From assembly GCA_035512695.1 (NCBI GenBank), contig DATKDL010000011.1, positions 1 through 58,700 on the forward strand: a stretch of 58,700 bases of DNA, read 5' to 3'. Made by a program: the position numbers and the translations under genes. Each line of letters starts with the position of its first letter. The stretch's first letter is position 1. The notes below the pieces were generated by a model. That model saw nothing but the letters and a program-made list of their open reading frames with translations. It did no database searches and was not told where the DNA came from. Origin of the DNA: Anaerolineales bacterium (GTDB lineage: Bacteria > Chloroflexota > Anaerolineae > Anaerolineales > JABWBV01). Below are positions 11,958 through 46,565 of the stretch, one piece after another.

Positions 11958-12008
11958 AAAACGGATGACCGGCTGCGGGGCTGTGTCCCGCAGCCGGTCA
12001 TCCGTTTT
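11958..12008. terminator. Bidirectional terminator-like palindrome (22-bp arms)
   Basis: aaaacggatgaccggctgcggg / cccgcagccggtcatccgtttt between convergent genes. Confidence 0.8.
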
Positions 12009-15000
12009 TACAATTTCGGGAACCGCGCAACCACTTTGGCCGGCGTCGGCACCGGGACGCGGTCGCCGAAGCGCAGGTCCGCGGGGGCCTTGCCGCTTGT
12101 TTTCGATGCACCCTGGTAGACGTAGAGCGGTGCCCCGATCTCCGTGTACTTCATCTCCAGAAAGGCCTGTCCGGTCAGGAAACCCCTGGCGTCCACCGCA
12201 CAGCTGGTGACCACGCCGATCGTCCGGCCGCGGCGGTCGAGCACGGGATCACCGGTGTGGGCCATGCGCACGTTCTGTTCTTCGAAGGTGAACCGGACCA
12301 GCTCGCCGGCGCGCTTCAATTCGCGCTTTATAAAGGCCGCCCGGCCGATAAACCAGGGTTTGTAGGTTTTGACATAGCTTCCGAACCCGGCTTCTCCGAC
12401 GCCCAGTTTCAATTCACCGCCCATTTCGTGCCCGTAGAGCGGCAGCCCGGCCTCGGTCCGCAGCGAATCGCGGGCGCCGAGCCCGCACGGCAGCAGCCCC
12501 AGGTCCTCACCGGCATCCAGGAGCGCCGTCCAAAGATCGACCAGCCGGTCCGGGTGGACGAAAAGCTCGAACCCGATCCGCTCGCCGGTGTAGCCGGTCC
12601 GTGAGACGACCAGGTCGATGCCGCCCAGTTCAGCCTCGGTCAGCTCGGTGCGGGCCAGGTTTTCGATCCGCCGCCGGACGACCGGATCTTCCGTCAGCCG
12701 GAGCAGGATCCGGAGGGATTTCGGGCCTTGCAGGGCCAGGTCGACCACCCGGTCCTCCCCTTCGCTCTCCTGACGCAGGTTCCTTAACACGGCGTCGCGG
12801 CCGTAAGCATGGGCCCACGGCCGGTCCTCATCGATCCGGACAACGCCGTTTTTGACCGCGTTCAGCCACGCCCAATCTTTTTCATCGTTCGAAGCATTGA
12901 CGACGACGAGGTATTTTTCAGGGGCGCGGCGGTAAACCAGCAGATCATCGATAACATTGGCGTTCGGGTCGAGGAAGTGGGTATAGCAGGATTGCCCGAC
13001 GGTGAGCGCGCTGATATCGTTCCCGCAGACGCTGTCCAGGAAAGCGCAGGCGCCGGGTCCTTCCGCCTGGTATACGCCCATGTGCGCCACATCGAACAGA
13101 CCGGCTGCCGTGCGGACGGCGGCATGCTCCTCTTTGACGGATGTGTACCAGACGGGCATATCCCAGCCGCCGAACGGCACCATCCGGGCGCCCAACCGGA
13201 GATGCTCGGCATGCAGCGGCGTTTCGCGCAGAGGGGCATCCGGTCTGTCCGCCGGGGGTTGGAAAGCCGGCAGCGGGCCGTTGGGGTGCGAACCTTCTCC
13301 CTCGATCCCGACGAAATAGGGCTTGGTCGCGGAAACCCCGGTCCCGCGTTCCGTGGGATTGGGGACCAGGGCGCTGTCCCCGAGGCCGTGGCCGGCGGCG
13401 CGGACGGAGACCGGACCGGGGATCTTGCGCACCAGGTCCGGATCGAAGCGGATAAAGCCGTCGGAGAGATCGCGCAGCCAGGTTCCGGTTGCGCCGGCCT
13501 CTTTGCCGGGGACTCGCAGCAGGTAGCTCCCGTTTTCGGACAGTGCGAGAACGCCTTTGATCGATCGCTCTCCAGCGTTCAGCGTCGTGTGCTGGGCGCT
13601 CCTGGATTGGAGCGAATCGACATCGCTGGTGAAGACGAAGTTGGCGAATTCGCGGCGCTTTTCGCCGTCGATCTCGAAAATGACCCAGTCCATCACGTCG
13701 ACGGCCGTCCGCTCGCGATGCGGAAAGTGCGGGGCGGCGTGGTCGCCGGGCACGAAATCGATCCCGGCGCTCTCGGCCAAAACCCGGACGCGGCTGCGCA
13801 CGTCCTGCAGGACGTCCGCGGCGACCTTGGCCCGGCTGCCGCGCCGCCGCGCCGCCGGGTCGACATACGGGGTGCAGGCCATCAGGAGGTCGGCGATGCA
13901 GTCCGCCAGGCGGACGCATTCGGCCTCTTTGAAGCCGCGCTGCGTGATCCAGGGCGTGCCCATCCGGATCCCGGAAGGGTTCAGGGCGGACCTGTCGCCG
14001 GGGATCGTATTTCGGTTGACGACGATCCCGGCCAGGTCCAGGATCCGGGCGGCCATATCGCCGGAGAGCGCCGTTCCGTCCGGTCCGGTGACGGATCCGG
14101 CGTCGAGGTTCATCAGGTGGGTGTTTGTGCCGCCGAAGGGGATCTTGAACCCACGCTCGGCAAGGCGATCGGCAAAGGCAGCGCAATTATCGACGATCTG
14201 CTGCTGGAGGGCTGTGAACTGCTCGGTCCCGGCCAGCTTCATCGCCAGGGCCAGCGCGGAGAAGACGTTGACGTGCGGGCCGCCCTGCTCGCCGGGGAAT
14301 ACGGCCCGGTCGAGCTTGCGGGCCAGGGCGCTTTTGTGCGTGATGATCAGCGCCCCGCGCGGGCCGCACAGCGTTTTGTGGGTCGTCGTCGTTACGACGT
14401 CGGCGATCCCGACCGGGGACGGGTAGACCCCACCGGCGATCAGCCCGGCCACGTGGGCGACATCGGCCAGGAGGTAGGCCCCGACCTCGTCGGCGATCGA
14501 ACGGTACGCATCCCAATCCGCCTGCCAGGGATAGGACGAATAACCGCCGATGATCATCTTCGGCTTGTGCTGGCGCGCCAGGGCCCGCATCTGCTCGTAG
14601 TCAAGTTTCTCGGTTTCCGGGTCGATGGTGTAGGAAACGATGTTGTAGTATTTCCCCGAGCGGTTGACCGGTGAGCCGTGCGAGAGGTGGCCGCCGTAGA
14701 TCAGGTCCATCCCCATGACGGTGTCGCCGGGTTCGATCAGGGCGTGGTAGACGGCGTTGTTGGCCGGCCCGCCGGAAAGGGCCTGGACATTGACAAACAG
14801 GTCATCGGCCGTCAGGCCGTTGGCGGCGAACAATTCGGCTGCCCGCCGCCGGGCGAGTGATTCGACGATATCGGCGTACTCGACGCCCTTGTAATAGCGC
14901 GGATCCGAGAGACGCCGGTACTCGCCCAGCCGGGCGTCGTAGTCCAGCAGTTCCTCTTCCGTGAGCAGGCGCCATTCCTCCGGCGGGTAGCCTTCCGCAT

Positions 15001-15169
15001 AGATATTCTGGAAGGCCGTTTCCAGGGCGGCGCGCACCGCGAGCGGCGCTGTGCTTTCGCTCGGGATCAGGATCAGGCGGCGAAACTGCCGTTCTGCTTC
15101 GAACTGGTTGAGGTCGTGGAGGTCGGGGTCGAGGGCGGAAATTGAGCCCCTGAAGAGGAAGTCGTTCAT
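12008..15169 (-). CDS. glyA-gcvT: Serine hydroxymethyltransferase fused to glycine cleavage T-protein (GlyA-GcvT fusion)
   Basis: N-terminal LIPSE, YAEGYP, GGHLSHG, TTTHKTLCGPRG, VFPGEQGGP; C-terminal TPLH..H..LGARMVPFGGWDMPVWY, GLFDVAHMG, SRTGYTGE, GLGARDSLRTEAGLPLYG. Confidence 0.93.
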   Translation of the reverse strand: MNDFLFRGSISALDPDLHDLNQFEAERQFRRLILIPSESTAPLAVRAALETAFQNIYAEGYPPEEWRLLTEEELLDYDARLGEYRRLSDPRYYKGVEYADIVESLARRRAAELFAANGLTADDLFVNVQALSGGPANNAVYHALIEPGDTVMGMDLIYGGHLSHGSPVNRSGKYYNIVSYTIDPETEKLDYEQMRALARQHKPKMIIGGYSSYPWQADWDAYRSIADEVGAYLLADVAHVAGLIAGGVYPSPVGIADVVTTTTHKTLCGPRGALIITHKSALARKLDRAVFPGEQGGPHVNVFSALALAMKLAGTEQFTALQQQIVDNCAAFADRLAERGFKIPFGGTNTHLMNLDAGSVTGPDGTALSGDMAARILDLAGIVVNRNTIPGDRSALNPSGIRMGTPWITQRGFKEAECVRLADCIADLLMACTPYVDPAARRRGSRAKVAADVLQDVRSRVRVLAESAGIDFVPGDHAAPHFPHRERTAVDVMDWVIFEIDGEKRREFANFVFTSDVDSLQSRSAQHTTLNAGERSIKGVLALSENGSYLLRVPGKEAGATGTWLRDLSDGFIRFDPDLVRKIPGPVSVRAAGHGLGDSALVPNPTERGTGVSATKPYFVGIEGEGSHPNGPLPAFQPPADRPDAPLRETPLHAEHLRLGARMVPFGGWDMPVWYTSVKEEHAAVRTAAGLFDVAHMGVYQAEGPGACAFLDSVCGNDISALTVGQSCYTHFLDPNANVIDDLLVYRRAPEKYLVVVNASNDEKDWAWLNAVKNGVVRIDEDRPWAHAYGRDAVLRNLRQESEGEDRVVDLALQGPKSLRILLRLTEDPVVRRRIENLARTELTEAELGGIDLVVSRTGYTGERIGFELFVHPDRLVDLWTALLDAGEDLGLLPCGLGARDSLRTEAGLPLYGHEMGGELKLGVGEAGFGSYVKTYKPWFIGRAAFIKRELKRAGELVRFTFEEQNVRMAHTGDPVLDRRGRTIGVVTSCAVDARGFLTGQAFLEMKYTEIGAPLYVYQGASKTSGKAPADLRFGDRVPVPTPAKVVARFPKL

Positions 15170-15191
15170 AGATGCATTGTAGTATAGAGAT

Positions 15192-15246
15192 TGTAAAAAT
15201 TGAATGGCGGCTGTGGCTTTACCGCAGCCGCCATTCAATTTTTACA
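15192..15246. terminator. Long palindrome (22-bp arms) overlapping the stop codon of the upstream lipoprotein gene
   Basis: tgtaaaaattgaatggcggctg / cagccgccattcaatttttaca. Confidence 0.8.
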
Positions 15247-16694: not shown

Positions 16695-16952
16695 TCAATG
16701 TCCCTCTAGCCCCGCATTTCGCGCCTTGATGATCGCCTGGGCGCGGCCGTTGACTCCCAGCTTGCCAATGATCGTCGAGACCTGGTTGCGGATCGTTTTG
16801 GGGCTGAGTACCAGCCGTTCGGCGATGGCGCTGTTGGTCAGGCCGGCGGCAACCAGGGCCAGAATCTCTCGTTCGCGCGGCGTCAGCTCGGGGAATGGCT
16901 CGGCCTTATCGCTGCGCCCACTTTTGTTCCTGATTTGGGCGTCGATTCGATC
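16695..16952 (-). pseudogene. Orphan LuxR-type HTH remnant (C-terminal part of a NarL-type regulator)
   Basis: Manual translation EPFPELTPREREILALVAAGLTNSAIAERLVLSPKTIRNQVSTIIGKLGVNGRAQAIIKARNAGLEGH*; in-frame TAG at 16953-16955 and no ATG/GTG/TTG before the domain. Confidence 0.8.
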
Positions 16953-17043
16953 CTAACACGGCCGTTTCCATTTCTCCGACAAGCTGCTGGAATTTTGCAA
17001 ACAATTCGTTTACACTTCCTTTTAGTGCGACGAGAGGAATAGA

Positions 17044-17724
17044 ATGACCACTAACCCCACAAAGCAGGATATTCGCGTTCGTGCGGCTGTCTACGACTCG
17101 GCGATTTCGACAGGCCTGCCGCCGAAAGTCAAACATCTTGCCGGCGTCCTCTCGCTCGATGAGGCCAGCGTGCGTGCGTCGTTCGAACGCCTCGCGGCCG
17201 CCCGCGTCCTGGTCCTTCAAAAGGACAGCCGCGAAGTCCTCATGGCCAACCCCTTCTCGGCTGTTCCGACGTCGTTCGCCGTGATCCTCGACGGGATGCT
17301 CTGTTATGGCAACTGCATTTGGGATGCGCTTGGGATTCCGGCCATGCTCGGTCGCGATGCCCTGATCCGCTCGTCCTGCGCCTGCTGCGGGGATGCCATG
17401 GAGCTCTCCGTTTCGGCGGGCTCGCTCGAACCGGTCGACGCCACCATCCATTTTGCCGTTCCGGTTCGCCGTTGGTGGCAGGACATCGTCTATACCTGAA
17501 AGACCATGCTTCTCTTCCGGTCGGAAGAGCACGTGGACCGCTGGTGCTCCGCATGGAATCTTCTGCGAGGAGGGGTCATGACACCTGAGACCACCTGGCA
17601 GCTGGCGCATGCATGGTATTCGGCGGATCGTCGTGAGCCTGGGTGGCGCCGCCGCACGGTCGACGAAACGGAAGCGCTCTTTGTATCACTTGGACTGACA
17701 GGCGAGTTCTGGAGCCTGCGGTGA
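17044..17724 (+). CDS. MerB-like organomercurial lyase family protein, probable selenoprotein (UGA at 17497-17499 read as Sec)
   Basis: N-terminal wHTH-like region, MANPFSAVPT, NCIWDAL (MerB C-x-x-D), SSCACCG; frame continues through TGA into KTMLLFRSEEHVDRWC...EFWSLR*. Confidence 0.82.
17500..17536 (+). promoter_or_regulatory. Candidate bacterial SECIS element
   Basis: Stem ctcttcc/ggaagag closing a GGUC loop 19 nt after UGA, extendable by tgc/gca and cca/tgg. Confidence 0.72.
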
Positions 17725-17745
17725 CGCTCAGTGGGGCAGCTAAGG

Positions 17746-17819
17746 TGGGCGGGAAGGGACTCGAACCCTTGACTTCTTCGGTGTAAGCGAAGCGCTCTAA
17801 CCAACTGAGCTACCCGCCC
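17746..17819 (-). tRNA. tRNA-Val(TAC), CCA not fully encoded
   Basis: GGGCGGG-TAGCTCAGTTGGTTAGAGC-CTTCG ct TAC ac CGAAG-GGTTCGAGTCC-CCCGCCC A. Confidence 0.96.
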
Positions 17820-45511: not shown

Positions 45512-45659
45512 CGCTCTATCGGGCAGGGTTTGAACCGCACAGCGCGGTTATACTAAAGATCTGACTGTTAATTGGGCCAGCGGTTAAAGGGGTGTGCGCC
45601 GGTTATCACGGCGCACTTCCCTGGAACCGCCGCCCCCCAAATTGAATGAGGAGCTGAAC

Positions 45660-46118
45660 ATGCTGACAAAAATCACACGATCGATCGCCAGAATTATCCC
45701 TACCGAGACCGTCTCGGCTCACTGCGACGGCCCCTGCGGGGTCTACGATCCGGCCTCCGCGCGGATCGCAGGCGAGGCCGTCCTTTCCATGACGAAGAAA
45801 ATGCTGGCGCTCGATCCGGGCGCTCACGACCACGCGACCCAGAACACCTACTCCCGCTTTATCGCCATCAAAGAGGAGCAGGCCCAACTCGCGAAAGACG
45901 AACTCCTGATCCTCTGGACGGACTATTTCAAACCGGTCCATCTCGAGAAATACCCGGATCTGCACACGACCTTCTGGAACGCCGCCAAGCTGTGCTCGGC
46001 CACCAAGGTCAACGTCAGCCTCGAGGACGCTGAAGCCCTGATGGACGCGATCCAGAAGATCCACACGATCTTCTGGGAAACCAAGGGGCGGGAAGTAGAC
46101 TACTACACCGCCGCCTGA
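45660..46118 (+). CDS. sodN: Nickel superoxide dismutase precursor
   Basis: Propeptide then Ni-hook HCDGPCGVYDP; LWTDYFK. Confidence 0.97.
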   Translation: MLTKITRSIARIIPTETVSAHCDGPCGVYDPASARIAGEAVLSMTKKMLALDPGAHDHATQNTYSRFIAIKEEQAQLAKDELLILWTDYFKPVHLEKYPDLHTTFWNAAKLCSATKVNVSLEDAEALMDAIQKIHTIFWETKGREVDYYTAA

Positions 46119-46199
46119 TTGACGACGACGATAACCGAAGGCCTGTAAGCGACCAGCCGGACCGGGCAACCGGTCCGGCTGTCCTTTTGTGTGGAGAAC

Positions 46200-46565
46200 G
46201 TGTCTCGAATTCCCCACGATCTTTCAAATACCGGTTGGCCGGAATTCATCCTCTGGCTGCTGAACCGCCGGATCCGGTTCACCGTGAAAGGGTCCTCCAT
46301 GTTCCCGATCCTGAAACCCGGGGACCAGGTGCTGATCGACCCGAGCGCCTTTCGGCGCAGATCGCCGAATGTCGGTGAAATCGTCGTCGCCCTGCATCCC
46401 GGCGGAGAGGCGCTCAAGATCATCAAGCGTGTCGCAAAAGTCCACCCGGACGGACAGCTCGATCTCCAGGGTGAGAACCTTTTTGAGACGACCGATTATC
46501 GGGCCGTCGAGCCGGGTAAAATACTCGGCAAAGTAACCTCTATTTTTTCCGCACATGAAGATTAG
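46200..46565 (+). CDS. sodX: Ni-SOD maturation protease (S26 family)
   Basis: VKGSSMFPILKPGD, IIKRV, GEN; adjacent to sodN. Confidence 0.9.
   Translation: MSRIPHDLSNTGWPEFILWLLNRRIRFTVKGSSMFPILKPGDQVLIDPSAFRRRSPNVGEIVVALHPGGEALKIIKRVAKVHPDGQLDLQGENLFETTDYRAVEPGKILGKVTSIFSAHED

Follow-up and report, generated by a model that had tools for sequence, protein, structure and literature searches.

The closest described relatives of the gene discussed here are the organomercurial lyase MerB and the selenoprotein SaoL. In MerB (EC 4.99.1.2), as described in PMC10114901, Cys96 and then Cys159 bind the substrate R-Hg+, the carbon is protonated by Asp99 and the Hg(II) passes to MerA, and the signature positions given in PMC8261052 are Cys96, Asp99, Cys117 and Cys159. 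SaoL (NCBIfam NF040728) is presented as a MerB-like organometallic lyase selenoprotein of unknown substrate, and is the published precedent for selenocysteine (Sec) at the Cys159 position (Haft & Gwadz, bioRxiv 10.1101/2022.07.06.499078). Two selenoproteome reviews name, in the passages concerned, a single MerB-like family, which the 2026 one equates with SaoL (PMC13188914, PMC9312934). We found no description of the clade reported below in the full-text literature covered or in NCBIfam 20.0; subscription papers lie mostly outside that coverage, and a prior mention is possible.

The window analyzed here is a stretch of 58,700 nucleotides from an Anaerolineales bacterium. On its forward strand, 17044-17724 reads as a single frame, with one internal TGA at 17497-17499 (preceded by WWQDIVYT and followed by KTMLLFRSEEH) and another TGA as its terminal stop. 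An earlier note on this DNA had placed the ORFs 17044-17499 and 17506-17724 in the same frame across the UGA, and the unbroken MerB domain of the read-through product bears this out. PF03243 matches the read-through frame with 106.9 bits (cut-off 27) over profile positions 1-125 of 126, while the two halves taken apart match only positions 1-81 and 87-125. To judge by the sequence, the two adjoining short frames form a single gene, whose product would be a MerB-fold protein of 226 residues with UGA152 as Sec, laid out as an N-terminal winged-helix domain, a MerB catalytic domain and a Trp-rich C-terminal extension (W..DRR.P.WRR...FW). A Shine-Dalgarno-like GAGAGG at 17032-17037 (forward strand) stands 6 nt ahead of the ATG, and no convincing promoter or terminator was found around the gene; nor did any RNA holder come up for the stretch.

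The database entry for this protein type is a 151-residue fragment ending at the UGA, and an ATG stands two codons downstream. Both would suit a true stop, in a split gene or pseudogene that restarts at Met155; the UGA could also be a read error, or a codon for Trp or Cys. To all of these we give almost no credence, in view of what the relatives carry at this codon. In a scan of species-representative genomes the relatives (best 80 of 115, 43-64% identity) have TGA at the UGA152 column in 80 of 80 cases and never TAA or TAG, with no other stop within the match and with sequence conserved on both sides of the UGA. These best 80 of 115 span at least five phyla, the hosts by record title being Acidobacteriota (34), Gemmatimonadota (20), Chloroflexota (18), Actinomycetota (3) and Myxococcota (1), with 4 unassigned. 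The earlier note had allowed for a strain-specific or erroneous UGA, and it is neither. A read error at 17497-17499 is ruled out by the same 80 relatives and by the public-run contigs over the site (X1 record 2, X3 record 16 and X4 record 24; run X1 may be the source sample), which have no other letter there. The supposed restart codon is not kept in all of the relatives either, an Ile codon replacing the ATG in 8 of the 80 (best 80 of 115), and TGA is the ordinary terminal stop in 49 of 76 complete members, the window gene among them.

The protein databases give the same picture from the other side. Among the best 119 non-self matches 113 stop exactly ahead of the UGA, 4 have Cys and 2 have Trp, and among the best 150 cluster representatives 80 stop at the UGA, 63 have Cys, 2 have Trp, 4 show a different residue and 1 has no coverage there; together, 193 of these 269 best matches are cut at the UGA. 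The pattern for which the earlier note had proposed an alignment, Cys or UGA at this column in homologs with conservation on both sides, is the one found, with TGA in the 80 relatives (best 80 of 115) and Cys in others. The four proteins with Trp could be counted for a Trp codon, but they share the same downstream peptide, are known from protein records alone and are probably gene calls made under a code in which UGA is Trp.

Directly 3' of the UGA lies a putative SECIS element whose upper stem-loop is CUCUUCC-GGUC-GGAAGAG at 17512-17529 (forward strand), and whose loop lies 19 nt away from the UGA; the hairpin may be lengthened to 17505-17535 by a lower stem. The bSECIS rules of PMC13188914 call for a loop of 3-9 nt, a stem of 4-16 bp, a G in the first two loop positions, a distance of 16-37 nt from the UGA and an MFE <= -7.5 kcal/mol, and the window hairpin agrees with these (4-nt GGUC loop, 7 bp, 19 nt, -9.1 kcal/mol for the stem only to -11.4 kcal/mol). 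Hairpins were called by a simple rule of our own. Taken alone, the window hairpin has a modest folding z-score (-1.4 to -2.6), but of the 94,124 TGA triplets in the genome that carries the window gene (G000) only 60 are followed, at the same distance, by a perfect 7-bp stem whose loop begins with G.

Comparison across the clade says more about this hairpin. Over 81 aligned downstream regions 93.8% of the alignment cells in the stem are paired, with 16 two-sided changes (C-G to U-A or A-U); none of 500 shuffles paired as highly, a test that is inflated by the kinship of the sequences, and slid controls gave 42-60%. The codons within the stem are fixed relative to usage elsewhere within the same genes (Leu CTC 63/65 versus 0.42, Arg CGG 72/79 versus 0.28, Ser TCG 58/63 versus 0.32 and Glu GAA 73/81 versus 0.33), while the codons flanking the stem, Thr154 and His163, are at background usage. 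A hairpin at 18-19 nt spacing is present in 80 of the 80 relatives (best 80 of 115), in 75 of them at <= -5 and in 54 at <= -7.5 kcal/mol, as compared with 24% and 11% of 1,500 random TGAs for which any spacing was allowed. RNAalifold recovers only the four inner pairs from the 81-row alignment, at -2.5 kcal/mol, a weak consensus because 18 members have a 6-nt loop. From these patterns in the alignment we conclude that the hairpin is under selection. The covariation and the synonymous-codon constraint thus uphold the SECIS-like stem-loop that had been proposed from the window alone, and the covariation is a further argument against a stop or a sense codon.

At 85% likeness, contig depth over the segment around the UGA and SECIS (17478-17545) greatly exceeds that over the remainder of the gene in run X1 and, to a smaller extent, in X2 and X3. 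This excess suggests that many co-occurring soil organisms carry the element, the summed depth being no copy number.

The genome of the window gene has selA, selB, selD (with its own in-frame TGA) and tRNA-Sec, so the selA, selB, selC and selD that the earlier note had proposed to look for are all present. There are two tRNA-Sec(UCA) genes on separate contigs (C134:69-164 and C198:221-315), and this pair of tRNA(UCA) genes could be put forward for a UGA with another meaning. Among the hosts (best 80 of 115, some of them incomplete MAGs) 74 of 80 have selA and 3 of the other 6 have selB, for a total of 77 of 80. In an even sample of Chloroflexota (301 genomes) the full-length UGA form is present in 16 genomes, 14 of which have selA and the other 2 selB. 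A close form with TGC is present in 7 of the 301, six of them belonging to one family, and in these selA, selB and the hairpin are all absent (0 of 7 each); a TGC form where the Sec genes are missing again tells against a UGA that is anything but Sec. Since 227 of the 301 genomes have selA in any case, co-occurrence in the hosts has little discriminating power by itself. The counts include genomes marked as unpublished (G061, G076, G334 and G343, and for the baseline also G106, G238 and G241), and the conclusions are the same without them. With the conserved UGA, the hairpin, the sel genes and their joint loss in the Cys forms all supporting the recoding that the earlier note had proposed, we are close to certain that UGA152 is decoded as Sec, with SelB binding the GGUC hairpin.

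The predicted fold of the protein is that of MerB. An AlphaFold2 model (Cys for Sec, 71-row alignment) has a pLDDT of 97.4 and a pTM of 0.93, and Foldseek gives 11 matches at E<=0.001, every one of them a MerB. By VIA-align the model superposes on Bacillus MerB2 (PDB 5C17) with Z 18.5, rmsd 3.5, 191 aligned residues and TM 0.67, and on the R831-type MerB 3F2F with Z 15.1, rmsd 4.4 and 179 aligned; the next unrelated structures are winged helices at Z 5.7. The window protein thus shares fold and PF03243 with the characterized enzymes (R831 MerB, PDB 3F0O/3F2F; Bacillus MerB1; NF033555 and NF009710), but its identity is only 20-26% with these and 20-28% over all the characterized MerBs compared, and it falls below the NCBIfam cut-offs (48.9 versus 193 for NF009710 and 43.8 versus 200 for NF033555).

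The profile alignment places Cys91, Asp94, Cys112 and U152 on MerB Cys96, Asp99, Cys117 and Cys159, so that three of the four MerB signatures are matched as they are and position 159 is the UGA, predicted to be Sec. The earlier assignment of the first two catalytic residues to the motif NCIWD is supported, the motif being residues 90-94; Cys91-Ile-Trp-Asp94 is encoded at 17314-17325 (forward strand, as for the residues below), and Cys91 and Asp94 are invariant in 71 aligned sequences. The UGA had likewise been placed at the second catalytic Cys, and the residues aligned with it are Cys159 in E. coli-type MerB and the TC-K Cys in MerB2. One alignment moves the UGA column to Cys160 by way of a gap, but 159 is favored by the register downstream, which has no gap, and by the alignments to C160S and MerB2. 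Cys112, the equivalent of the structural Cys117, is part of a Cys112-x-x-Cys115 motif (17377-17388; C112 71/71, C115 70/71) in which Cys115 is extra relative to MerB; the CxxC is missing from several more distant UGA-bearing members. His136 (17449-17451) is found in 71 of 71 sequences of the clade and is not His in the reference MerB1 and MerB2; it is a candidate proton source. Unlike MerB, the clade also has Asn, Ile or Ser for Trp95 and, at the C terminus, some 30 additional residues rich in Trp, and it does not adjoin merA. The best match in both sequence and structure is Bacillus MerB2, a 99Ser variant (E 2e-20), whose T-C-K before a hydrophobic strand parallels the T-U-K of the window protein; MerB2 has Ser99, low activity and a place within a mer operon, whereas the window clade keeps the Asp.

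SaoL, the predicted MerB-like selenoprotein to which the earlier note had referred, and the window protein are alike in the MerB fold, in the predicted Sec at the Cys159 position, in the Cys96 and Asp99 equivalents and in database truncation at the UGA. SaoL is described with a CU dipeptide, in a nine-gene SAO locus, in anaerobes and in 52 of 15,511 genomes (Haft & Gwadz, bioRxiv 10.1101/2022.07.06.499078), whereas in the window clade the U is never preceded by C and the gene is free of an operon. The residue before the U is T in 52, N in 12, A in 5 and S in 2 of 71 sequences, for a Sec-site motif of [T/N/A/S]-U-[K/S/R]TMLLFRSEE. The NF040728 model gives the window protein 45.2 bits against a cut-off of 140, and two relatives 47.4 and 25.5. 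No SAO neighborhood was found in the window or at the 80 loci (best 80 of 115). In the host genome SaoP stayed below its cut-off and SaoC had no match, the same search matching in no control genome either; a SaoP-like permease flagged there as a selenoprotein was rejected, its TGA being the terminal stop. On these comparisons the window gene is not SaoL and appears to be of a different clade, and its protein may work like MerB and SaoL while being a strict member of neither.

The surroundings of the gene give little sign of mercury. The 47 ORFs taken from the window include no member of a mer family. The earlier note had stated that merA, merR and merT are not nearby, which is true of the window but not of the genome, where a merA reduced to its final 54 codons (ending LSCCAG) lies at the edge of another contig (G000:C179:1-162); this assembly gave no further part of merA, and beyond the fragment are a cupredoxin-like and a heavy-metal P-type ATPase-like gene, both named by motif only. 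Neighborhood clustering of 80 loci (best 80 of 115) gave no recurring family except ABC ATPases (8 loci) and synteny in five close Gemmatimonadota. A Pfam scan of 123 neighbors (121 of 210 chosen by a crude ORF score, and 2 others) gave no mer, ars or sel gene, so the placement outside any mer operon holds, and there is no neighborhood signal for any particular metal. A different organometal or metalloid as substrate, which the earlier note had drawn from the lack of mer genes nearby, is a conjecture, in a genome that has a merA fragment elsewhere. Full-length merA is present in 9 of the 80 hosts (best 80 of 115) as compared with 44 of 301 in the phylum sample, and hgcA was above the cut-off in none of these 80 hosts, nor in the genome of the window gene. 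As a positive control, merA lies no more than 3 kb from 10 of the 21 weaker, stop-free MerB-like matches in the phylum sample, and at least 24 kb from every UGA form there.

The gene appears to have come to this genome from elsewhere. The window protein is 61-65% identical to copies from Thermoanaerobaculia and only 34-36% identical to the UGA-bearing copies of two genomes of its own genus, and in a FastTree tree its place is with those from Thermoanaerobaculia (support 0.85), which makes lateral acquisition likely. One of these two genomes of the same genus is without the gene at its tRNA-Val. In the window a tRNA-Val(TAC) (17744-17819, reverse strand) has its 3' end 19 nt past the stop codon of the gene, a possible insertion site. 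On the other side the gene is flanked by a divergent LuxR/GerE-type HTH frame without a start codon (16695-16952, reverse strand), probably the remnant of a response regulator. Elsewhere in the window are a gene for a protein of 1,076 residues in which serine hydroxymethyltransferase is fused to glycine cleavage T protein (12008-15238, reverse strand) and a nickel superoxide dismutase (Sod_Ni; 45594-46562, forward strand), which is followed by its S26-type peptidase.

Beyond this clade the family is varied. In the FastTree tree, which does not include SaoL, Cys forms branch off at several points within the UGA forms, with moderate support, and this fits a repeated change from Sec to Cys; the codon at the UGA column is TGC in loci L103-L106 and L111. 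A number of Cys forms carry a fused domain, which is LuxR HTH (4 proteins), GNAT, glyoxalase, PhzF or DUF3303, and the residue at the Asp99 position is variable in the superclade as a whole, with Cys, Glu and others there. Together these suggest jobs other than Hg-C protonolysis. A sister family, 28% identical to the window protein, consists of L112:1471-2181 (G329) and 54 metagenome loci (L118-L171), several of which are near-duplicates. It has UGA at the Cys159 column in 50 of the 50 loci covering the site, and among the 49 loci with both sites the Cys96 column is UGA in 28 and Cys in 21; the Asp99 position is mostly Glu, with Asp in three near-identical loci. The same CUCUUCC-GGUC-GGAAGAG follows the second UGA, and a weaker hairpin the first. 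A two-domain ArsA ATPase is found upstream of the sister-family gene at two related loci (L150:2-1678 and L161:1544-3376), the only hint of a metalloid that we found. A Cys form of the extended clade on Ralstonia megaplasmids (L186:2998-3675, 98 records) has C-A-W-C for C-x-x-D, is annotated as hypothetical and has no mer genes around it.

What the protein does is less clear than how its UGA is read. With about as much belief as doubt we predict a stand-alone lyase or trap of the MerB type for organomercurials or other soft organometals. Speaking against it are the low identity to characterized MerBs, with scores below the NCBIfam cut-offs, the lack of linkage to mercury genes, and the varied Asp99 position and domain fusions of the superclade. 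With moderate confidence, R-Hg+ would be held between the thiolate of Cys91 and the selenolate of Sec152, with Asp94 protonating the metal-carbon bond so that R-H is released. With a selenol pKa of about 5 the selenolate would already be deprotonated, and Sec152 therefore could not give a proton as Cys159 does in MerB; less surely, the proton might come from water or from the invariant His136. The affinity between Hg and Se is described as tight (Haft & Gwadz, bioRxiv 10.1101/2022.07.06.499078), and as most hosts are without MerA, release of the product would be slow. The protein may then scavenge trace organometals, with high affinity and low turnover, and not belong to inducible mercury resistance, although we hold this step more loosely. 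Genomes with merB and without merA are common (895), their activity being unreported according to PMC8261052.

Two other functions deserve consideration. A selenoprotein on the MerB scaffold could instead do redox or electrophile chemistry, by a Cys91-Sec152 selenenylsulfide or by accepting alkyl groups, with no metal-carbon substrate, which we judge rather unlikely. It would account for the absence of mercury-gene linkage in neighbors or hosts, for the extra CxxC of the window clade and for a sister family with UGA for both cysteines in 28 of 49 loci and Glu for Asp, and it would suit the neighbors with roles in stress and detoxification (MsrA, glyoxalase, DNA alkylation repair, AlkZ and OsmC), although these are scattered and occur once or twice each. 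Selenoproteins are also mostly redox enzymes, as PMC9312934 has it. Yet no thioredoxin or reductase partner recurs nearby, Asp94 is as invariant (71/71) as it is in MerB, and all solved members of the fold are metal-binding MerB. Metal binding leads to the second possibility, in our view an unlikely one, that the protein binds, buffers or senses a soft metal or metalloid (Cu, Hg(II), As/Sb), possibly through its winged helix, and is not a lyase. MerB D99S binds Cu, and NosL, given as the only known structural relative of the fold, binds Cu(I) (PMC10114901). The N-terminal domain resembles the winged helices of LexA, MntR and DtxR (Z about 5), and both the LuxR-HTH fusions of the four Cys-form proteins and the ArsA upstream of L150 and L161 would sit well with such a role. 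Against this, MerB has the same winged helix and no known role as a regulator, the recognition helix is poorly conserved in the clade, no target operon is linked to the gene, and Asp94 is kept.

We have also considered a broader picture, which we put forward tentatively and think somewhat improbable. The window gene would be part of a large, operon-free superclade of MerB-fold Sec proteins in soil and sediment, with one-Sec (Cys/Asp/Sec) and two-Sec (Sec/Glu/Sec) sites and one shared SECIS, acting as a sink for methylmercury that is independent of MerA. It would cleave the Hg-C bond and lock the Hg on Se, may predate the MerBs of mer operons, and would have been missed by merB surveys as a fragment without Cys159. 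Surveys of methylmercury demethylation filter merB on Cys159 according to PMC8261052, and genes of the UGA form would therefore be dropped.

These findings add a second MerB-fold selenoprotein clade beside SaoL, and apparently a much wider one. The origin of MerB and its role without MerA are stated as open questions in PMC10114901 and PMC8261052. A small, single-gene Sec enzyme that has natural Cys and double-Sec counterparts makes such questions about MerB directly testable.
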